This document shows positions 32,143 to 55,796 of a DNA stretch of 64,000 nucleotides, piece by piece. This stretch comes from Acidimicrobiales bacterium (lineage in GTDB: Bacteria > Actinomycetota > Acidimicrobiia > Acidimicrobiales > SZUA-35), in assembly GCA_965216655.1 (NCBI GenBank), contig CBDCGP010000056.1:68782-132781 (forward strand). The letters are read 5' to 3'. Position numbers and translations under genes: made by a program. How positions within the stretch are numbered: the stretch's first letter is position 1; every line of letters starts with the position of its first letter. Below the pieces are notes generated by a model. It did not search any database. It was not told the DNA's origin and saw only the letters and a list, made by a program, of their open reading frames with translations.

Positions 32143-33969
32143 CTAGCTCCCGACGATGCCGCCGTCCTTCCGTCGCAGGACGAACGTGCAATCCCGGGGC
32201 ACGGTGACACCGTCGGGAACGGCGTTCATCACGGGGAAGTTGGTGAGCGTCGGATCGCCGTTACCCGGGTGCTGGGTGTTGGCGAACAGCACCCGCCGGT
32301 CCGGGGTGACGGTGAGCCCGGTGATCTCGTCCGAGGTGACGCCGGTCAGCAGGCGGCGCAGGTCGCCCGAGGCCGGATCGGCGACCAGCATCTGGTTGTT
32401 GAGGTCATCCTTCTGTCCGCCGTCGGTCTGGATGAAGATGCGACCGTCGGGATCGGCCCAGAGGCCATCGGGATCCGAGAACGTGTCCTCGGTGCCGTGG
32501 GTGTCGCCGGCGATGATGAAGATGTCCCATTCGAAACCGGTTCCGACGTGGCGGTCGGTGTCGACCCACCGGATGATGTGCCCGTCGGGGTTCGGCGCCA
32601 GCGGGTTGGCGGCGTCGGCTTCGGTCCGACGCGAGTTGTTGGTCAACGTGCAGTACACGGTGCCGTCAGGAGCGACGGTGGTCCACTCCGGTCGATCCAT
32701 AGGCGTGGCCCCGAGGATGTCGGCGGCGAGCCGGGCGTAGGTCAGCACCTCGGCCTGATCGGCGAAGCGAGCGGCCAGCGCCGGGTTGTCGATGGTCAGC
32801 TCGAGCCATTGTCCGGTACCGTCGTCGTCGAATCGGGCCACGTACAGGCGGCCCTCGTCGAGCGGGCTCTTGCCCCGGGCCAGCATCGACCTGTAGTTGG
32901 AATCGGAAACGAACTTGTAGATGTAGTCGAACCGTTGGTCGTCGCCCATGTAGGCAACGATGCGGCCACCACGGCCCACGGCGAAGGCCACGCCTTCGTG
33001 CTTGAACCTACCCATGGCCGTTCGCTTCACGGGTGTTGCCTGCGGCATCATGGGATCGATCTCGACACACCAGCCGAAACGGTTGTGCTCGCCGGCATAG
33101 TCGGCGTTCGACAGATCGAAACGGGGATCAAAGTTCTCCCAGCCGTAGCCGAATCCGCTGTCGGTGAAGCCGTAGCGCTCCTGATCCTCGGTCGGTGTCC
33201 ATTCGCCGGTCGAACCGAAGTAGCCGTTGAAGTTCTCCTCGCAGGTCACGTAGGTGCCCCACGGGGTGTACCCGCTCGAGCAGTTGTTGACGGTGCCGAA
33301 CGACGGTCGGGCCGGATCCCCGAGGAGGGGATGCCCGGCGGCCGGTCCCGAGAAGGTGACCGGCGTGTTGACGTGGATGCGACGGTTGAGTCGGTCCCGG
33401 ATCACCTGCCATCGGCCGTTGCGTTCGGCCACCTCGACGACCGAGACACCATGGGCGGCCTGGGACAGTCGGACGTCCTCCAGCGACTCGGGGGCGTCCT
33501 TGCCGTACACGTGGGTGTTGCGTCCGAACTCGTGGTTGATGCAGATCACGCCGTGGTCACGGCCGAGCGGGTAGTACCACATGCCGTCGTGCCCGATGCC
33601 GATCTGCTTCTCCTGATCGACGGCGGACTTCGAGCCGTTCACGTGCTCCGGGTAGGGGGCGAGGATCGGCTCACCCCACGGGATGAGAACCTGGTATTCG
33701 TAGTCCGACGAGATGGCCGGAAGCGGGCCGGTTCCGGCGGCGACCGGGACGGGAGTGAAACCGACGAGCGGGTTCCGCTTGTTCCTTCCCCGGGAACGTT
33801 CTGCCCGGTACTGTCCGGTCAACGCGCCGGCTGATCCGGCGGAGAAGAAGACGGTGGCACCGGTGGCCAGACTTCCGCCGAGAACCTTCCGGCGGGAGAT
33901 CCTGGCGTTCAGCACCTTCTCGAACGGTCGATTGGGAGATGGGTTCGTCGCTTGTTCGTCGACTGGCAT
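32143..33969 (-). CDS. phoX: PhoX-family (DUF839) alkaline phosphatase with a Tat signal
   Basis: Tat motif ISRRKVLGGSLATGATVFF; beta-propeller-type body with NRFGWCVEIDP and GDDQRFDYIYKFVS. AGGAGG RBS lies upstream. Confidence 0.85.
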   Translation of the reverse strand: MPVDEQATNPSPNRPFEKVLNARISRRKVLGGSLATGATVFFSAGSAGALTGQYRAERSRGRNKRNPLVGFTPVPVAAGTGPLPAISSDYEYQVLIPWGEPILAPYPEHVNGSKSAVDQEKQIGIGHDGMWYYPLGRDHGVICINHEFGRNTHVYGKDAPESLEDVRLSQAAHGVSVVEVAERNGRWQVIRDRLNRRIHVNTPVTFSGPAAGHPLLGDPARPSFGTVNNCSSGYTPWGTYVTCEENFNGYFGSTGEWTPTEDQERYGFTDSGFGYGWENFDPRFDLSNADYAGEHNRFGWCVEIDPMMPQATPVKRTAMGRFKHEGVAFAVGRGGRIVAYMGDDQRFDYIYKFVSDSNYRSMLARGKSPLDEGRLYVARFDDDGTGQWLELTIDNPALAARFADQAEVLTYARLAADILGATPMDRPEWTTVAPDGTVYCTLTNNSRRTEADAANPLAPNPDGHIIRWVDTDRHVGTGFEWDIFIIAGDTHGTEDTFSDPDGLWADPDGRIFIQTDGGQKDDLNNQMLVADPASGDLRRLLTGVTSDEITGLTVTPDRRVLFANTQHPGNGDPTLTNFPVMNAVPDGVTVPRDCTFVLRRKDGGIVGS

Positions 33970-34094
33970 GTAGTCCTCCTGGGTTCACGTAGCGTCACGA
34001 GTGGACGGTAAACAAGCCGGTTGTCCGCTCGGTTTCACCCAGGTGGACGGGTCGTTGCCATTGCCTGAAACCTCTGTCGGCGGACGGCGAAAAC

Positions 34095-34133
34095 GTTCAC
34101 CTGTCGTTCATCTTGGTTCTCACTGCGGGTCAC
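34095..34133 (+). promoter_or_regulatory. PHO-box-like array of four phased direct repeats in the phoX/pstS divergent region
   Basis: GTTCAC (34095), GTTCAT (34106), GTTCTC (34116) and GGTCAC (34128) have 10-12 nt spacing and lie ~95-135 nt upstream of the pstS ATG. Confidence 0.5.
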
Positions 34134-34228
34134 CGGCGACTCGTATCGTCGGAGTTGTCCAGCTGGGAGAGGTCCGGCGGGCCGTGTCCCAGGGAGGGAC
34201 GCGAAGCACAACCAACGGAGATCAACGC

Positions 34229-35356
34229 ATGAAGCAACTGATCAAACTGATCGCTCTGGGCATTGTCTTTGCCCTGATCGCGGCGTCTTGTGGTGACGAC
34301 TCGGATACCGAGGCCGGTCCCGAGACCACAGCGCCGCCCGCTGCCGAGGAGACCGAGGAGCCGGCAGAGGCCGAAGAAGATGAGGCCGAGGATGAAGCCA
34401 TGGAGGACGAGGAAGATGCCATGGAGGAAGACTCCGAGATGACCGACATGGGTCTTCCGGTCGTCGACCCACTTTCGGTCGACGCTGGTGATGTCGCCAT
34501 CGCCGGTTCGTCCACCGTGTTCCCGCTCTCGACCGCCGTGCTGTCACAGTGGATCGACGAGGGCGGCCCGGAGTACTCGATCGACTCAATCGGCTCCGGT
34601 GGTGGTTTCGAGCGGTTCTGCGTCGAAGGCGCTTCCGACATATCCAACGCCTCCCGTCCGATCAAGGACGAGGAATTCGCCGCCTGTACGGAGACCTGGG
34701 GCGACGAGCCCATCGAAATCCGCGTCGGTACCGACGCGCTCTCGGTGGTCATCTCCAACGGCAACTACTTCGCCTCCGAGCTGACCATCGAAGAGCTCAA
34801 CACCGCCTTCGCACTGGCCGACTCCGGCGCCACCTGGTCCGATGTGAATCCCGATTTCCCGGCTCACCCCATCGTGCTCTACAGCCCCGGCGAGGATTCC
34901 GGCACCTTCGACTACTTCAACGAGGTCGTGTTCGAGGAAGCCGAGCCGTCGCCGATCTCCTCGTCGATCGCCGAGATCGTCGGTGAGGACGACAACGTGA
35001 CCGTGCGTGGTGTGGCCGACGACGGCTGTACCGAAGGCGATCTCAGCACCAGCTGCGCCATCGGCTACTTCGGCTACGCCTTCTTCCAGCAGAACGCCGG
35101 CGAACTGGTCGCCGTGTCGGTCGACGGCGTCGAGCCCAACGCCGAAACGGTCGACGCCGCCGAGTACCCGCTGGCCCGTCCGCTCTACATGTACACCGCC
35201 CCCAGCATCGTGGCCGAGAAGCCGCAGGTGGCGCAGTTCATCGCCTACTACTTGAACAACGTCAACGACGTCATCGGTGAGGTCGGCTACTTCCCGGCGC
35301 CGGCCGACGCGTTGCAGGGCGCAGCCGACAACATCAGCGCCGCCGCCGGATTCTGA
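34229..35356 (+). CDS. pstS: Phosphate ABC transporter substrate-binding lipoprotein
   Basis: Start trimmed to ATG 34229. Signal peptide MKQLIKLIALGIVFALIAASCG with a lipobox. PBP body with IAGSSTVFPL, IGSGGGFERF and PLARPLYMY. Confidence 0.9.
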   Translation: MKQLIKLIALGIVFALIAASCGDDSDTEAGPETTAPPAAEETEEPAEAEEDEAEDEAMEDEEDAMEEDSEMTDMGLPVVDPLSVDAGDVAIAGSSTVFPLSTAVLSQWIDEGGPEYSIDSIGSGGGFERFCVEGASDISNASRPIKDEEFAACTETWGDEPIEIRVGTDALSVVISNGNYFASELTIEELNTAFALADSGATWSDVNPDFPAHPIVLYSPGEDSGTFDYFNEVVFEEAEPSPISSSIAEIVGEDDNVTVRGVADDGCTEGDLSTSCAIGYFGYAFFQQNAGELVAVSVDGVEPNAETVDAAEYPLARPLYMYTAPSIVAEKPQVAQFIAYYLNNVNDVIGEVGYFPAPADALQGAADNISAAAGF

Positions 35357-35391: not shown

Positions 35392-35424
35392 GTGGCCCGG
35401 CCTCAGATTGTGCGGCCGGGCCAC
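35392..35424 (+). terminator. Strong intra-operon hairpin between pstS and pstC
   Basis: GTGGCCCGGCC (35392-35402) and GGCCGGGCCAC (35414-35424) form a perfect 11-bp stem with an 11-nt loop. No U-tract follows. Confidence 0.5.
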
Positions 35425-35488
35425 AGCCCCGAAACAACACAGTGACAGGAACAGGCGACCCGGCAACGTACGAGGTGGACACCGAACA

Positions 35489-36466
35489 ATGACGACTTCC
35501 ATGCCCGACGCGCAGGCTGAGCGTGCCGCCATCGCGGCCTCGTTGACGAAGAAGTCCCGTCCGGGTGAATCGGTCATCCGGGCCCTACTCTTCGTTTGCG
35601 GGGCCATATCGGTCGCCACCACGCTCGGTATTCTCTACGAACTGGGCAAGGAAGCCCTACTCTTTTTCCGCGACGACCGGGTGTCGATCGCCGAGTTTCT
35701 GACCGGCACCACCTGGCAACCTCAAGCGGGATCGTTCGGCATCTGGGCCCTCATCCTCTCGACGCTCTACATCGCCCTCATCGCCATGCTGGTGGCCGTG
35801 CCCATGGGATTGGCGTCGGCCATCTACCTCTCGGAATACGCATCCGAACGGGCGCGGTCCATACTGAAACCGCTCCTGGAGGTTCTGGTCGGCATCCCCA
35901 CCGTCGTCTACGGGTTCTTCGCCCTGACGTTCATGACCCCGGTGCTTCGCTCGCTGTTCGGTTCCACCGTCGGCTTCTTCAATATCGCGTCGGCCGGAAT
36001 AGTGGTCGGCATCCTCATCGTCCCGCTGGTCAGTTCACTGTCCGAAGACGCCCTCCACGCGGTTCCCGACGCGCTGCGCCAGGCGGCCTACGGGATGGGA
36101 GCCACGAAACTGGAGGTCTCGCTCCGGATCGTTGTTCCCGGCGCACTGTCGGGCATAGCGGCGGCCGTCGTCGTGGCGTTGTCGAGGGCGGTCGGCGAGA
36201 CGATGGTGGTCGCCCTGGCCGCCGGTGCGTCTCCCCGCAACTTCACACTGGGCGAGGACTCCGTGTTCGGCTACATCCTCAACCCGTTCATCGGCGGTGA
36301 GGCCATGACCGGTCACATCGTCCGCATTTCGAGCGGCGACCTCAGCTACAACACCATCGACTACAACTCGATCTTCTCCATCGGCCTGACGTTGTTCTTC
36401 ATGACGCTGATCCTCAACATCATCAGCCGCCGCCTGGTGAGACGCTTCCGGGAGGAGTACGAGTAA
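35489..36466 (+). CDS. pstC: Phosphate ABC transporter permease
   Basis: Start trimmed to ATG 35489, with GAGGTGG upstream. Polytopic, with the EAA-type loop LSEDALHAVPDALRQAAYGMGATKLE. Confidence 0.9.
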   Translation: MTTSMPDAQAERAAIAASLTKKSRPGESVIRALLFVCGAISVATTLGILYELGKEALLFFRDDRVSIAEFLTGTTWQPQAGSFGIWALILSTLYIALIAMLVAVPMGLASAIYLSEYASERARSILKPLLEVLVGIPTVVYGFFALTFMTPVLRSLFGSTVGFFNIASAGIVVGILIVPLVSSLSEDALHAVPDALRQAAYGMGATKLEVSLRIVVPGALSGIAAAVVVALSRAVGETMVVALAAGASPRNFTLGEDSVFGYILNPFIGGEAMTGHIVRISSGDLSYNTIDYNSIFSIGLTLFFMTLILNIISRRLVRRFREEYE

Positions 36467-36567
36467 TGGCTGCCGTCGTGTCGGAGACCCGACTAACCGA
36501 GTTTCGCCTGACGGCGAAACGTCGTCCGCTCGAATCTTCCGTATGGGATCAGAAGGTGGTCGGGTAA
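36466..36567 (+). CDS. Mini-ORF 1 (33 codons), TAATG-coupled to pstC; possibly a relic rather than a gene
   Basis: Hand translation gives MAAVVSETRLTEFRLTAKRRPLESSVWDQKVVG. Its first ~40 nt are a near copy of mini-ORF 2 and resemble the pstA start. Confidence 0.25.
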   Translation: MAAVVSETRLTEFRLTAKRRPLESSVWDQKVVG

Positions 36568-36614
36568 TGGCTGCCGTCGTGCCGGAGATCCGACAAATCG
36601 AGGTGGACGAATAA
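36567..36614 (+). CDS. Mini-ORF 2 (15 codons), TAATG-coupled on both sides
   Basis: Hand translation gives MAAVVPEIRQIEVDE. Its stop overlaps the pstA ATG (TAATG at 36612-36616). Confidence 0.25.
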   Translation: MAAVVPEIRQIEVDE

Positions 36615-38044
36615 TGGCTGTTGACGCGCCGGAGCGGTCCACCGAGCTGCCCGGGCCGGGCGGCCAGGATTGGTTCCCCGACGAAGCCGAATTCGACCGG
36701 CTCCTCAACCGCCGGACCCGGAAGGCGCAGATGAGCCAGCTCGCCTTCCTCTCGGCGCTCGTCGTCGCCGTGCTGGCCCTTGCGACCCTGCTCTACACCA
36801 TCATCAACGACGCCTTCGGCCTGGTTGCCATCGTCAACGAGAACAACCCCGAAGAGGTCGTGGCCGAAGCGGGCTATGATCCTGCGACCGTCGATCTCGA
36901 GGATCTGACCCGGGACCAACTCGTGACGCTGCTCGAGGGCGCGGTGTCCCGCAATGTGGGGCGGCGCCTCGAACGGGAGCAGCGTTTCTACGACGACCGC
37001 TATGTGTTCGAGGATCCGGCCGTCTACGAGGAGCTGTGCGCCTCGGACGACCCGGTCGACGGATGCGGTCTCGGGGCCCGCGACAAGGCGAACGTCTTCG
37101 CCCTCGTCCAAGAGCGGGTTGTCGTCCCGGATGTGATCGCAGCCGAGGAGTTGGTGCCGTCGCTGCTGGCCCCCGACGCCTTCGAGGAGGACGTCCTCCA
37201 GGCCTTCGTCGACTCACCGGAACGATTCCCCGACTACACGGCCGACCAGGTCCGGTTCGAGTGGCGTTCGTGGGTGTCGACCGCGTTCCTCCGTACGCCG
37301 GCCAGTGCCACACCGGAGGTTGCCGGTATCCGCACGGCCGCGCTGGGAACACTGTGGATCGCTGTCATCACGATCCTGTTCGCCGTGCCGGTCGGTGTGG
37401 GCGCCGCCGTGTATCTGGTCGAGTTCGCAAAGCCCTCCCGCTTCAACGATTTCATCCAGACCAACATCAACAATCTGGCCGGCGTGCCGTCGGTCATCTA
37501 CGGCATGCTCGGCCTGGCCGTGCTGGTGAGAACGTTCGAGCCGGTGACGTCCGGTGATGTGTTCACCTCGGGTCCGCCGCCGTCCGAGAACGGCCGAACC
37601 GTTCTGGCGGCCGGCATCACGCTGGGGTTGCTCGTGCTGCCGATCATCATCATTTCCGCCCAGGAGGCGTTGAAGGCCGTCCCCAATTCGCTTCGGCAGG
37701 CCGGAATGGGTCTCGGGGCCACGAAATGGCAGACGGTCCGCAGCCAGGTTTTGCCGGTCGCGCTTCCCGGCATCCTCACCGGTGTGATCCTGTCCGTGGC
37801 CCGGGCCATCGGTGAGACGGCTCCCCTGATCGTCGTCGGCGCCGCAAGTTTCATCACCGCCGACCCGTCGGGCCCGTTCTCGAAGTACACGGCCATGCCG
37901 ATTCAGATCTTCCAGTGGACCAGCCTGCCCCAGGCCGAATGGCGTCACCTTGCGGCCGCCGCCATCATCGTCCTGTTGGTGATCCTGCTCGTCCTGAACG
38001 CAACGGCCGTCATCTTGAGAAACCGCTATTCGAGAAGAGTATGA
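36614..38044 (+). CDS. pstA: Phosphate ABC transporter permease, long form with an N-terminal extension
   Basis: 476 aa. One N-terminal TM helix and a ~170-aa extracytoplasmic insert, then a PstA core with SAQEALKAVPNSLRQAGMGLGATKWQ. Confidence 0.9.
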   Translation: MAVDAPERSTELPGPGGQDWFPDEAEFDRLLNRRTRKAQMSQLAFLSALVVAVLALATLLYTIINDAFGLVAIVNENNPEEVVAEAGYDPATVDLEDLTRDQLVTLLEGAVSRNVGRRLEREQRFYDDRYVFEDPAVYEELCASDDPVDGCGLGARDKANVFALVQERVVVPDVIAAEELVPSLLAPDAFEEDVLQAFVDSPERFPDYTADQVRFEWRSWVSTAFLRTPASATPEVAGIRTAALGTLWIAVITILFAVPVGVGAAVYLVEFAKPSRFNDFIQTNINNLAGVPSVIYGMLGLAVLVRTFEPVTSGDVFTSGPPPSENGRTVLAAGITLGLLVLPIIIISAQEALKAVPNSLRQAGMGLGATKWQTVRSQVLPVALPGILTGVILSVARAIGETAPLIVVGAASFITADPSGPFSKYTAMPIQIFQWTSLPQAEWRHLAAAAIIVLLVILLVLNATAVILRNRYSRRV

Positions 38045-38983: not shown

Positions 38984-39667
38984 ATGACTGATCAGCGAAG
39001 TCATTTCCACCACGAGATCGAGGGGCTCGAGACATCGATTCGCGAGGTCGCGGAGCGTGCTGAGCGTATGGTCGGCACGGCCGTCGATGCCCTGCTCTCG
39101 ACCGACGACGACATGGCCACTGCAGTGATCCAGGAGGGAGCTCGGCTGGCCGAGGTTTACGTCGACATTCACAGTCGGTGGCTGAACTTGATGGCACTGC
39201 AGCAACCGATGGGCAGCGATCTGCGCACCCTATCGGCGCTCCTTCATCTCAACGTAACGCTGGAGCGAACAGCGGCGCAGTGTGTGAATATCGCGAAGCT
39301 GGCCGGTCTCGCCGCCGGCCTCCCGAGAAGCGACCGGATACGTCGTCAGGTCGAGGAGATGGCCGACCTCGTCCGTCCCATGATTCGGTTGGCTGTGCGG
39401 GCGTTCGAGCATCGTGACGCCGACGAGGCCCGCCTGCTGCCCGCCATGGACGAACCGGTCGATCGGATCAACCGGGCCATGTACCGGGAGGTCGTCGCCT
39501 GCGCTCCCGATGAGCGCCTCGTCGAATGGGCTACGCACATGATGATGGCGGCTCGTGCCTTGGAGCGGATCGGCGACCAGGCAGTCGACATCGGCGAACA
39601 AGTTGCGTTCCTCGACACCGGGGACTATCACGGCTTTGCGGAAGACGGCATCACCAACCGTCGTTAG
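38984..39667 (+). CDS. phoU: Phosphate-signalling accessory protein PhoU (stand-alone)
   Basis: 227 aa with two PhoU repeats (LNVTLERTAAQCVNI; ARALERIGDQAVDIGEQV), directly after pstB. Confidence 0.9.
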   Translation: MTDQRSHFHHEIEGLETSIREVAERAERMVGTAVDALLSTDDDMATAVIQEGARLAEVYVDIHSRWLNLMALQQPMGSDLRTLSALLHLNVTLERTAAQCVNIAKLAGLAAGLPRSDRIRRQVEEMADLVRPMIRLAVRAFEHRDADEARLLPAMDEPVDRINRAMYREVVACAPDERLVEWATHMMMAARALERIGDQAVDIGEQVAFLDTGDYHGFAEDGITNRR

Positions 39668-54966: not shown

Positions 54967-55796
54967 CGACAGCGAGCGGGCGCACGTTCCGGCAGCTCCA
55001 CGAACCGGGTAATCCGTTCGTGTTGCCAACGCGTGGGACGTCGGTTCGGCGAAGGTTCTGGAAGCGCTGGGCGCCGAGGCGATCGGAACATCGTCGGCGG
55101 CCCATGCGTTCACGCTCGGACTGCCGGACATGGGCCATGTGAGCCGTGACGAGGCCCTGGCTCACGCGGCGTCGGTCGCCGACGCCGTATCAGTGCCGAT
55201 CTCCGGTGACCTCGAGAACGGCTACGGGCACCGTGGGTCCGACGTGGCCGAAACCATCACACGGGCGGCCGCGGCGGGCCTCGCCGGCTGCTCGATCGAA
55301 GACACCGCTCTGCCCGACAGCGCTCCGTATGCCCGTGCCGAGGCCGTCGCCCGGATCGAGGCGGCCGTGAGTGCCACTCGAGCACTTTCCGACGATTTCG
55401 TGCTCGTCGCCCGAGCCGACGGTGTCATGAACGGTCAGTACGACGTCGCCGAGGCCATCGCCCGGATCCAGGCGTTTGAAAGCGGTGGGAGCCGATTGTG
55501 TCTATGTGCCGATGCCCCCATCGTTCGACGACCTGGCTCGAATCTGCGAATCGGTCGATGTGCCCGTCAACGCCTTGGTCGCGGGGCCGTTCACCCGATA
55601 CAGCCGTGCCGACTTCGCCGGCATCGGTGTGGCTCGCCTGTCGCTCGGATCGGCGCTGGCCCGGGCCACCCACCGCACCTTGATCGAGGTGGCGCGTGAC
55701 GTGCTGGGAGCCGACGCAGACTTCGAAGGACTCGGTCGTGGTGTTCCGGGTGCCGAGGTCGATGACCTGCTCGGTGCCGGACCTCCCGACGACTGA
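54963..55796 (+). pseudogene. Isocitrate lyase/PEP mutase-family protein, broken by two frameshifts
   Basis: Three pieces in frames 0, 2 and 0. Piece 1: [21 protein letters not shown]. Piece 2: [29 protein letters not shown]...SGDLENGYG...IEDT...LVARADG...RIQAFE. Piece 3: AVGADCVYVPMPPS...NALV. Breaks at ~55025 (one G missing) and ~55480 (extra A). GTG overlaps the msrA stop. Confidence 0.75.

Follow-up and report, generated by a model that had tools for sequence, protein, structure and literature searches.

The junction between pstC and pstA in the window, by which we mean the whole 64-kb stretch of DNA analysed here, is present in three copies: the stop codon of pstC overlaps the start of a short open reading frame, the stop of this frame overlaps the start of a second one, and the second stop overlaps the start of pstA. 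We consider this arrangement a lineage-specific triplication of a stop/start junction, which is most likely a tolerated scar rather than an evolved regulator. It is a clean natural example of a duplicated stop/start overlap, and since an SD, a start and an overlapping stop are restored in every copy, the duplication can be regarded as a mutation that is self-buffering with respect to translational coupling. The finding concerns a single gene junction of an uncultured genome and carries no sign of function; its main practical value lies in annotation, where the 148 nt between pstC and pstA should be taken neither for a missing gene nor for an RNA element.

The pst operon and its triplicated junction

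The genes pstS, pstC, pstA, pstB and phoU are adjacent and co-directional in the window and form a pstSCAB-phoU phosphate ABC transporter operon. PstC (NCBIfam TIGR02138, 252.8 bits against a cut-off of 196.45; Pfam BPD_transp_1), PstA (NCBIfam TIGR00974, 239.9 bits against 193.45) and PstB (NCBIfam TIGR00972, 387.1 bits against 343.2) were recognized above their cut-offs; the PstS-family NCBIfam match reached 193.1 bits, slightly under the subfamily cut-off of 206.6, and the Pfam domains PhoU and PBP_like_2 were also found in the operon. The genes and short frames of the junction are the following.

35486 to 36466, forward strand: pstC, 326 aa from the ATG at 35486 (the longest open reading frame opens at the TTG at 35408)
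36466 to 36567, forward strand: mini-ORF1, 33 codons, MAAVVSETRLTEFRLTAKRRPLESSVWDQKVVG; GC3 0.67, CAI 0.46
36567 to 36614, forward strand: mini-ORF2, 15 codons, MAAVVPEIRQIEVDE; GC3 0.73, CAI 0.65
36614 to 38044, forward strand: pstA, 476 aa, TIGR00974, with a MAVDAPE... start orthologous to the starts of its relatives

Orthologues of pstC are 325-326 aa long. A database protein that is 100% identical to PstA (P0001) also has 476 aa, and the PstA proteins of the relatives align with that of the window from residue 1; judged from these alignments, the pstA start at 36614 is correct. An N-terminally extended or frameshifted pstA was ruled out, as the orthologous PstA start is homologous to 36614 and stop codons separate the frames.

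Each of the three junctions is a TAATG. The TAA of pstC (36464-36466) overlaps the ATG of mini-ORF1 (36466-36468; TAATG at 36464-36468), the TAA of mini-ORF1 (36565-36567) overlaps the ATG of mini-ORF2 (36567-36569; TAATG at 36565-36569), and the TAA of mini-ORF2 (36612-36614) overlaps the pstA ATG at 36614 (TAATG at 36612-36616). The resulting distance of -1 nt lies, in all three cases, within the range of -8 to about +6 nt that defines a pair coupled by termination-reinitiation (TeRe). The first-pass annotation had described exactly this chain, in which pstC, a frame of 33 codons, a frame of 15 codons and pstA are linked by TAATG, and the triplicated junction is confirmed as real, every feature of the chain lying where it had been placed. 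It had also reported a near copy 101 nt downstream with identity at about 36 of 40 positions; the spacing held, and the recounted identity is 35/40.

Mini-ORF2 has a second in-frame ATG upstream, at 36543, which would give an ORF of 23 aa and lacks an SD-like site (-0.9 kcal/mol). Mini-ORF1 was looked up among recorded genes and corresponds to no called gene there.

Origin of the copies

The array was detected by a repeat search combined with manual alignment, and it consists of a 35-nt sequence that occurs three times in register, at 36452, 36553 and 36600, with spacings of 101 and 47 nt. Over these 35 nt copies 2 and 3 share 83% and 77% identity with copy 1, and copies 1 and 2 can be aligned over 49 nt with 84% identity. 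The best ungapped self-repeat score in the region 36400-36700 was 59, whereas none of 200 shuffles scored above 24, and the array is the top local direct repeat within the whole 64-kb window. Tandem Repeats Finder did not report it, because the unit lengths differ by 54 nt. The consensus of the 47-nt unit is TAATGGCTGCCGTCGTGCCGGAGAYCCGACWAAYCGAG, and the units are composed as follows.

36452 to 36552, forward strand: repeat unit 1, 101 nt, the pstC 3' end, TAATG, a diverged copy of the pstA 5' end and a 54-nt spacer
36502 to 36555, forward strand: the 54-nt spacer, 18 codons, in frame and found only in unit 1
36553 to 36599, forward strand: repeat unit 2, 47 nt, a diverged copy of the pstC 3' end, TAATG and a diverged copy of the pstA 5' end
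36600 to 36646, forward strand: repeat unit 3, a diverged copy of the pstC 3' end, TAATG and the authentic pstA 5' end

Upstream of TAATG the units match the end of pstC, and 25-26 of 36 positions in units 1 and 2 agree with the pstA 5' end both of the window and of the relative L081. This homology supports the earlier proposal of a tandem duplication of the pstC/pstA junction in which the stop-start overlap was kept. Furthermore, the halves before TAATG in units 2 and 3 share a derived GGTGG where pstC has GGAGT, and the halves after it in units 1 and 2 share derived CC, T and T together with a +3-nt indel relative to pstA; such shared derived bases are the pattern expected from duplication, divergence and then unequal crossover.

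We infer the following order of events. The ancestral state, seen in the relatives, would have been a pstC stop overlapping or abutting the pstA start, with the SD in the last pstC codons. A segment of about 44 nt, bounded by GAG microhomology and reaching from a GAG of the pstC end (...GAG GAG TAC GAG TAA) to a GAG about 11 codons inside pstA, would have been tandemly duplicated, after which the halves freed from coding constraint, namely the pstA 5' copy of unit 1 and the pstC 3' copy of the second unit, could diverge. An unequal crossover would then have turned two units into three, and a 54-nt in-frame insertion would have entered unit 1.

The source of this spacer was sought in several ways. 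Placed against the contiguous pstA and pstC sequences, 36502-36555 gave only 15/54 and 9/54 identities; local alignments to the flanks and to the entire pst operon, under strict and under lenient settings, gave at best a stretch of 14 nt whose score was reached in 8/300 shuffles, which is non-significant after three tests; and blastn-short against the window and all loci found no source. That no source emerged for the spacer counts against the history outlined above.

The homology of the units to the flanking genes also bears on two other origins. Instead of a local duplication, a mobile intercistronic repeat of the MIRU kind, which inserts at start codons and brings its own coupled mini-ORF, might have entered the junction. 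The actinobacterial host agrees with this, as do the tandem units of 101 and 47 nt with mini-ORFs of 33 and 15 codons overlapping stops and starts inside an operon, which fit the MIRU description in PMC12548453 (citing Supply et al. 1997). A metagenome scan with the unit core returned one contig only, an unrelated soil contig with an exact 23-nt match, partly extendable, to the core of unit 2. However, this match lies off gene junctions, beside an LRR gene on a contig of 58% GC, and fits chance in a very large collection; a scan of viral contigs for the unit core found nothing, and neither the 64-kb window nor the 83 fetched loci hold the further dispersed copies that a MIRU family would have. 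The units are also not independent of their surroundings, since they align to the pstC 3' and pstA 5' ends of the window and of the orthologues. We regard a mobile insertion as very improbable.

The second is an assembly or polishing artefact of a metagenome-assembled genome (MAG) whose real junction is single-copy. The window is apparently a MAG contig, given that the 100%-identical PstA lies on just one contig, of 197 kb, and that its closest relatives are MAGs; the insert was seen in no second assembly. Mis-assembly normally gives identical or collapsed repeats, whereas the copies here are diverged (84% and 77%), carry structured shared derived changes and enclose a unique 54-nt block, and both flanking genes are intact and in frame. 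We consider an artefact highly unlikely.

Direct junctions in the relatives

When the junction was aligned in related genomes, pstC and pstA were found to adjoin directly in 45/45 cases, with spacings between -4 and +1 nt and without any remnant of the 148-nt insert. This includes the four closest by PstA identity, which are L081 (92%, TAGATG), L001 (91%, TAATG), L002 (88%, TAAAGTG) and L082 (83%, ATGA), as well as 41 more distant loci. The comparison covers readable junctions, so that L014 (95% identical), which ends before the junction, stands outside it; the cluster of P0001 contains only L001 and L014. Exact look-ups of mini-ORF1, PstA and P0001 yielded no closer relative bearing the insert. 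On the junctions compared, the 148-nt insert is specific to the lineage of the window, with the qualification that it is known from one genome and that, among relatives whose junction can be read, even the nearest are close to saturation at synonymous sites. Divergence between the free halves of units 1 and 2 amounts to 0.13 substitutions per site, against 0.62-0.95 at four-fold sites between the window and its nearest relatives; therefore the triplication is younger than the splits from these relatives. Of the two functional readings offered in the first-pass annotation, a neutral scar and a relay that tunes the PstA:PstC stoichiometry, the evidence favours the former over the latter. Direct junctions without the insert in close relatives are also one of the two observations which that annotation had itself named as refuting.

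Possible translation across the chain

SD-like sites were evaluated with an assumed canonical anti-SD (CACCUCCUUUCU), which may not be that of the host, and background 22-mers gave -4.6 +/- 2.75 kcal/mol. Under this assumption all three starts are preceded by such a site within the 3' end of the upstream frame, a feature that is common, though not universal, in TeRe-coupled pairs; the first is encoded by the last codons of pstC (REEYE).

36450 to 36457, forward strand: SD-like site 1, GGGAGGAG, inside the pstC 3' end before the mini-ORF1 ATG; duplex -11.5 kcal/mol
36553 to 36559, forward strand: SD-like site 2, AAGGTGG, in unit 2; duplex -9.4 kcal/mol
36600 to 36606, forward strand: SD-like site 3, GAGGTGG, in unit 3 before pstA; duplex -10.4 kcal/mol

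Ribosomes that end translation of pstC could in principle reinitiate at mini-ORF1, then at mini-ORF2 and then at pstA. Such a relay through the units is mechanically plausible, because no copy has lost its SD-like site, its ATG or the in-frame stop overlapping the ATG that follows. Each ATG is in frame with the next TAA because the unit lengths of 101 and 47 nt are both 2 mod 3. The 9-nt core TAATGGCTG is unchanged in 3/3 copies, about 40% of the flanking repeat positions vary, and by a rough estimate P is about 0.05 for zero change at 17 unconstrained core sites, which hints weakly at selection or gene conversion acting on the start modules.

These features could also be read as those of a selected translational relay or attenuator, whose two mini-ORFs are retained to control PstA output. 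Two extra reinitiation steps, each less than 100% efficient and running through rare codons, would set PstA against PstC, holding it below PstC, in a fixed ratio to PstC or tied to the ribosome recycling state. The SD-like sites and TAATG overlaps kept at 3/3 starts, the invariant core amid variable flanks and the frame compatibility at both units and across the 54-nt insertion argue for it, as does the strong phylum-spanning selection for pstC-pstA coupling, evident in the tight spacing of all 45 junctions. However, no relative has the insert and the direct overlap suffices for the same heterodimer in all of them, the occurrence in a single genome means that the conservation evidence is nil, and the good SD-like site of pstA itself (GAGGTGG) may allow de novo initiation independent of the relay. 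The Pst permease is expected to contain PstC and PstA at 1:1, a ratio at which attenuation brings no obvious benefit. A relay maintained for control is thus rather unlikely, and its fullest form, a selected serial termination-reinitiation relay built of two bicistronic-design-like couplers in tandem, must be called quite improbable. If it were true, the relay would fix how much PstA is made per PstC or render PstA synthesis less sensitive to mRNA structure, and local duplication of stop/start overlaps would be a route to new translational control in operons.

It was also considered whether the mini-ORFs encode functional micro-peptides, e.g. small regulators acting on the Pst transporter. Each has its SD-like site, ATG and open frame, and small proteins are often missed by annotation. 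Against this, the homologous parts of the two peptides differ by non-synonymous changes only (4/4; S/P, T/I, L/Q, T/I), and codon usage is poor, with GC3 0.69 and CAI 0.51 for the mini-ORFs versus 0.83 and 0.70 in the neighbouring genes; in the middle of mini-ORF1 GC3 is about 0.56 (own count), typical of non-coding sequence. The peptides have no hydrophobic segment and are missing from 45/45 relatives. Micro-peptides of this kind are extremely unlikely, and a conserved small protein gene was rejected on their absence from the relatives, the purely non-synonymous differences and the missing gene call.

At the RNA level a hairpin had been pointed out in mini-ORF1.

36501 to 36520, forward strand: perfect 8-bp hairpin, GTTTCGCC-tgac-GGCGAAAC, single copy

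The hairpin exists, but such hairpins are no more frequent than expected by chance: the window holds 17 perfect 8-bp hairpins with loops of 3-8 nt, against 10-19 in composition-matched shuffles, and because its frequency is that of chance it has no evidential weight. No T-run follows it and no terminator was called there; the 211-nt region folds no better than its shuffles (z = -0.22), an Rfam scan of the insert region matched no family, and neither a promoter nor a terminator was predicted in the insert. The hairpin was rejected as a functional element on its chance frequency, the fold score, the lack of a terminator-like tail and the lack of an Rfam match; a leader-peptide transcription attenuator was likewise rejected, with no terminator-like site, the same fold z-score and no Rfam family. 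We see no indication that selection has acted on the peptides or on an RNA element.

We return to the tolerated scar, which would be neutral and whose mini-peptides would be by-products of translation through the chain. A stop/start overlap with an SD encoded upstream is the standard arrangement by which two subunits of the same complex are coupled through termination-reinitiation. Had the duplication led ribosomes out of frame across the pstA start, or left about 150 nt untranslated, it would have harmed PstA synthesis and been purged. According to PMC10666635 and PMC6728339 termination-reinitiation coupling is enriched in heteromeric complexes and collapses at an untranslated spacer of about 20 nt, so that a duplication could be tolerated only if its geometry left the chain intact. 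It is likely that this coupling-compatible geometry explains the survival of the duplication. A counter-point is that unit lengths of 2 mod 3, a stop-free in-frame 54 nt and intact ATG and TAA codons are jointly unlikely (few percent) if unfiltered; this improbability therefore implies some selection for upkeep of the chain, and here the scar overlaps with the relay view.

Comparison with known systems

The pstC-pstA junction resembles the TeRe pairs described by Huber et al. (2019, PMC6728339; 2023, PMC10666635) in the co-directional stop/start overlap, here TAATG, in the SD within the 3' end of the upstream ORF, and in the fact that the genes encode subunits of one heteromeric complex. The canonical TeRe form is found at the pstC-pstA junction itself in all 45 relatives. 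Unlike the single junction of those pairs, the window has three in series with two non-conserved mini-ORFs between them, and a serial relay of this kind is not described in the parts of the two papers available.

Microhomology-bounded short tandem duplications are mutational scars that are usually removed or disrupt genes. The array resembles them in its 3-nt GAG bounds, in a copy number that would have grown by unequal exchange and in the decay of its unconstrained copies; it differs from the usual scars in that the duplicated segment sits exactly on a stop/start overlap, which is regenerated in each copy.

Nearest to the array among known systems are the mini-ORFs of mycobacterial MIRUs and the synthetic bicistronic design. 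As regards MIRUs (Supply et al. 1997, in the summary given by PMC12548453), the actinobacterial host, the tandem units of 40-100 nt inside operons and the short ORF per unit, which overlaps the stop and start of its neighbours and leaves a minimal impact on downstream expression, are shared features. MIRUs are, by the same summary, a dispersed and apparently mobile family with a common consensus and a -4 nt coupling, whereas the units of the window derive from the flanking genes, overlap by -1 and occur nowhere else in the sequences searched.

The synthetic bicistronic design (BCD; PMC5995908, PMC6302717, the review being taken as cited by PMC12548453) uses a leader of about 15 codons in which the SD of the next gene is embedded and whose stop overlaps the ATG of that gene, and the step from mini-ORF2 to pstA has exactly this geometry. 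BCD is engineered and placed after a 5' UTR, whereas the present arrangement would have arisen by duplication inside an operon and would be fed by an upstream gene. The triplicated junction may be taken as the local-duplication counterpart both of MIRU insertion at start codons in mycobacteria, which is presumed to be harmless, and of engineered bicistronic cassettes, and it offers a simple system to test if ribosomes can be relayed via several very short ORFs.

The pst operon and its repeated pstC-pstA junction

The junction lies in an operon with the order pstS, pstC, pstA, pstB, phoU, preceded by phoX on the opposite strand. The identities of the operon genes were confirmed by Pfam and NCBIfam, PstC, PstA and PstB passing the curated equivalog cut-offs of the latter, and the closest database relatives are metagenome-assembled genomes of Acidimicrobiales/Acidimicrobiia.

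Features of the pst operon and of the pstC-pstA junction
32143-33969, - strand (opposite): phoX
34001-35356, + strand: pstS
36464-36466, + strand: pstC stop TAA, overlapping the ATG of ORF1
36466-36567, + strand: ORF1, 33 codons, MAAVVSETRLTEFRLTAKRRPLESSVWDQKVVG
from 36567, TAA at 36612-36614, + strand: ORF2, 15 codons, MAAVVPEIRQIEVDE
36614-38044, + strand: pstA, 476 aa
38048-38977, + strand: pstB
38984-39667, + strand: phoU

The chain of TAATG overlaps described by the first-pass annotation was recovered in the sequence read-out: the final A of the pstC stop is the A of the ATG opening ORF1 (mini-ORF1), the TAA of ORF1 overlaps the ATG of ORF2 (mini-ORF2) at 36567, and the TAA of ORF2 shares a base with the pstA ATG. 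The likeness of the first two copies had been given as 36/40 and was 35/40 on recount. A repeat search defined three in-register modules at 36452, 36553 and 36600 (83% and 77% identity over 35 nt; spacings 101 and 47 nt), the similarity of the first two reaching 49 nt at 84%. Each unit consists of about 12 nt of pstC 3' end, TAATG and about 30 nt of pstA 5' end. The self-repeat score of the region was 59 (at most 24 in 200 shuffles), and the array is the top local direct repeat of the entire 64-kb window; it was not reported by Tandem Repeats Finder because the unit lengths are unequal. A further ATG at 36543 is upstream of and in frame with ORF2, and anti-Shine-Dalgarno (anti-SD) duplex scoring found no SD-like site for it. 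The second-best local direct repeat of the window (55321-55363 and 55432-55474; 43 nt, 79% identity) has a spacing of 111 nt, divisible by 3, and probably lies inside a coding sequence as an internal repeat.

Several features of the neighbouring genes were also observed. PstA of this clade (window and L001-L020, related pst loci) is unusually long, 465-476 aa against about 272-295 family-model positions, with the permease core match limited to residues 221-472 and about 190 additional residues after the first hydrophobic segment; the Acidimicrobiia and Chloroflexota relatives share this form. PstS has 451 aa with its binding-protein domain confined to residues 161-432, and its N-terminal extension contains a tandem repeat (34382-34428, 21-nt period, 2.2 copies, consensus GAGGACGAGGAAGAAGCCATG) coding for an acidic stretch. 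The longest pstB ORF reaches about 50 residues N-terminally beyond the family model, which matches from residue 53; translation may truly begin downstream of 38048, which would alter the apparent 3-nt pstA-pstB spacing. The PhoX-type alkaline phosphatase gene is divergent and directly upstream of pstS, forming a compact Pho-regulon cluster, and the longest ORFs are 30 nt apart, a gap that points to true starts of phoX and pstS, and a shared regulatory region, further in.

Distribution and origin of the insert

A PstA scan of species-representative genomes gave 80 loci, and junctions were extracted from the 43 where the 3' end of pstC and the 5' end of pstA could both be located; L081 (92% PstA identity) and L082 (83%) were added through exact-protein look-ups. 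In all 45 junctions the stop codon of pstC overlaps the start codon of pstA or lies at most 1 nt from it (ATGA/GTGA, TAATG/TGATG, TAGATG, TAAATG, TAAAATG, TAAAGTG), and none carries an insert. Direct overlap is thus the ancestral state, and it is conserved across two phyla.

Junctions of the four closest loci
L081: GAGTAC GAG TAG ATG GCT GTC GAC GCT CCG GAA
L001: GAG TAATG GCG GTT GAC GCC CCG GAA
L002: GAA TAA A GTG CTC GAA GCC CCG GAA
L082: GAATGA GCG TG GAC GCA CCG GAA

The 148 nt at 36466-36613 are specific to the lineage of the window, as judged against these 45 loci, of which the four nearest are 0.62-0.95 apart from the window at four-fold sites. Exact look-ups gave no second assembly with the insert, and the sequence of the only closer relative, L014 (95%), ends at PstA residue 174, before the junction. 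A viral scan for the unit core found no match, and a metagenome scan with the 23-nt core found a single contig, L083 (JGI Ga0126376_10136708), an unrelated soil contig of 58% GC. There the unit 2 core TAATGGCTGCCGTCGTGCCGGAG is matched exactly and extended in part by CCGACA (1887-1939); the match would likewise encode MAAVVPEPRQN... and stands beside an LRR-protein gene, away from any gene junction. In a very large collection this is probably a chance hit, though the extension is slightly above random.

Across the 45 loci, in Acidimicrobiia and Chloroflexota, PstC ends in conserved codons (F-R-E/Q-x-Y-E/D), and the DNA there reads GGGAGG or GGAGG, 8-12 nt ahead of the pstA start; the same bases therefore encode the PstC C-terminus and the pstA SD.

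The proposed tandem duplication of the junction was supported by shared derived bases, which refine it to a duplication followed by divergence, unequal crossover and an insertion. Before TAATG, unit 1 (GAGGAGTACGAG) is the genuine pstC end, constrained to encode EEYE, while units 2 (AAGGTGGTCGGG) and 3 (GAGGTGGACGAA) have a derived GGTGG in common. After TAATG, unit 3 (GCTGTTGACGCGCCGGAG-CGGTCCACCGAG) is genuine, constrained pstA, and units 1 and 2 (GCTGCCGTCGTG(T/C)CGGAGA(C/T)CCGAC(T/A)AA(C/T)CGAG) are united by four derived substitutions and a 3-nt indel. Units 1 and 2 match the pstA 5' end at 25-26/36 positions, equally for L081 and the window, which supports a local origin from pstA. A 44-nt tandem duplication with GAG microhomology at its ends (GAG|GAG TAC ... 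ACC GAG|CTG) would have come first; the two halves freed of coding constraint would then have diverged, an unequal crossover of the two copies would have given pre0-J-postX / preX-J-postX / preX-J-post0, and a 54-nt (18-codon) insertion would have entered unit 1. This order, inferred from the shared derived bases, predicts the pattern that they show. No source of the 54-nt block was found in the pstC/pstA flanks, the rest of the window or the related loci. Divergence between the free halves of units 1 and 2 is 0.13 substitutions per site, while at pstA four-fold degenerate sites the window is 0.62-0.95 apart from its four nearest relatives. The triplication is thus far more recent than these splits, and its absence from the four relatives agrees with that.

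Translational coupling and tests for a selected function

Both unit lengths, 101 and 47 nt, are 2 mod 3, therefore each ATG is in frame with the next TAA. All three starts retain SD-like complementarity to an assumed canonical anti-SD, their duplexes scoring -11.5, -9.4 and -10.4 kcal/mol (background -4.6 +/- 2.75), and the chain could mechanically act as a relay. According to published experiments (PMC6728339; PMC10666635), overlapping gene pairs are usually strictly coupled through termination-reinitiation, an untranslated spacer of about 20 nt nearly abolishes coupling, and stop/start overlaps occur preferentially between genes for subunits of heteromeric complexes. PstA synthesis would therefore be expected to suffer if the 148 nt were left untranslated or if a mini-ORF ran over the pstA start out of frame, but not from a TAATG chain; the intact chain thus has a simple survivorship explanation. 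Rough estimates are 1/3 for each unit length being 2 mod 3, 1/3 for the 54-nt insertion being in frame, about 0.45 for no stop in 33 codons at 66% GC and 0.15-0.6 for 9 unconstrained ATG/TAA bases staying unmutated. The joint chance of a few percent points to some selective filtering on pstA expression, not to an adaptive new function.

Nothing in the peptides, codon usage, hairpin, fold, Rfam matches or promoter/terminator sites of the insert pointed to a selected function of its own. All four differences between the homologous parts of the mini-peptides are non-synonymous (S/P, T/I, L/Q, T/I). Codon usage of the mini-ORFs (GC3 0.69, CAI 0.51) is intermediate between genes (0.83, 0.70) and out-of-frame sequence (0.55, 0.40), as expected of a decaying copy of a real start; GC3 of the 54-nt block is about 0.56. 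The 8-bp hairpin is no more frequent than chance, the region is no more stable than shuffles and shows no unusual RNA fold, and it holds no Rfam match and no promoter-like or terminator-like site. The sole hint of a selected function is the 9-nt core TAATGGCTG, identical in each of the three copies, against variation at about 40% of the remaining repeat positions (P about 0.05, a rough estimate), and gene conversion between the copies would account for it equally well. The suggested relay tuning PstA:PstC stoichiometry is a possible but unlikely reading, not supported by any available evidence.

Comparison with known systems

The array is most likely a duplication scar that buffers its own effect on translational coupling at the junction, present in one uncultured genome. 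Judged by its sequence, the architecture would be ordinary termination-reinitiation coupling in series. ORF2-pstA resembles the synthetic bicistronic design, being a short leader ORF which contains an SD and ends in TAATG. The closest natural analogue is the mycobacterial interspersed repetitive unit (MIRU), a short tandem intercistronic unit of another actinobacterial group; each MIRU has a short ORF overlapping neighbouring stops and starts, and its insertion therefore hardly affects downstream expression (Supply et al. 1997, via PMC12548453). Unlike MIRUs, the pstC-pstA unit is not dispersed, neither the window nor the fetched loci containing a further copy, and its units are derived from the flanking genes themselves; the array would work like a MIRU array but, on these two counts, is none.
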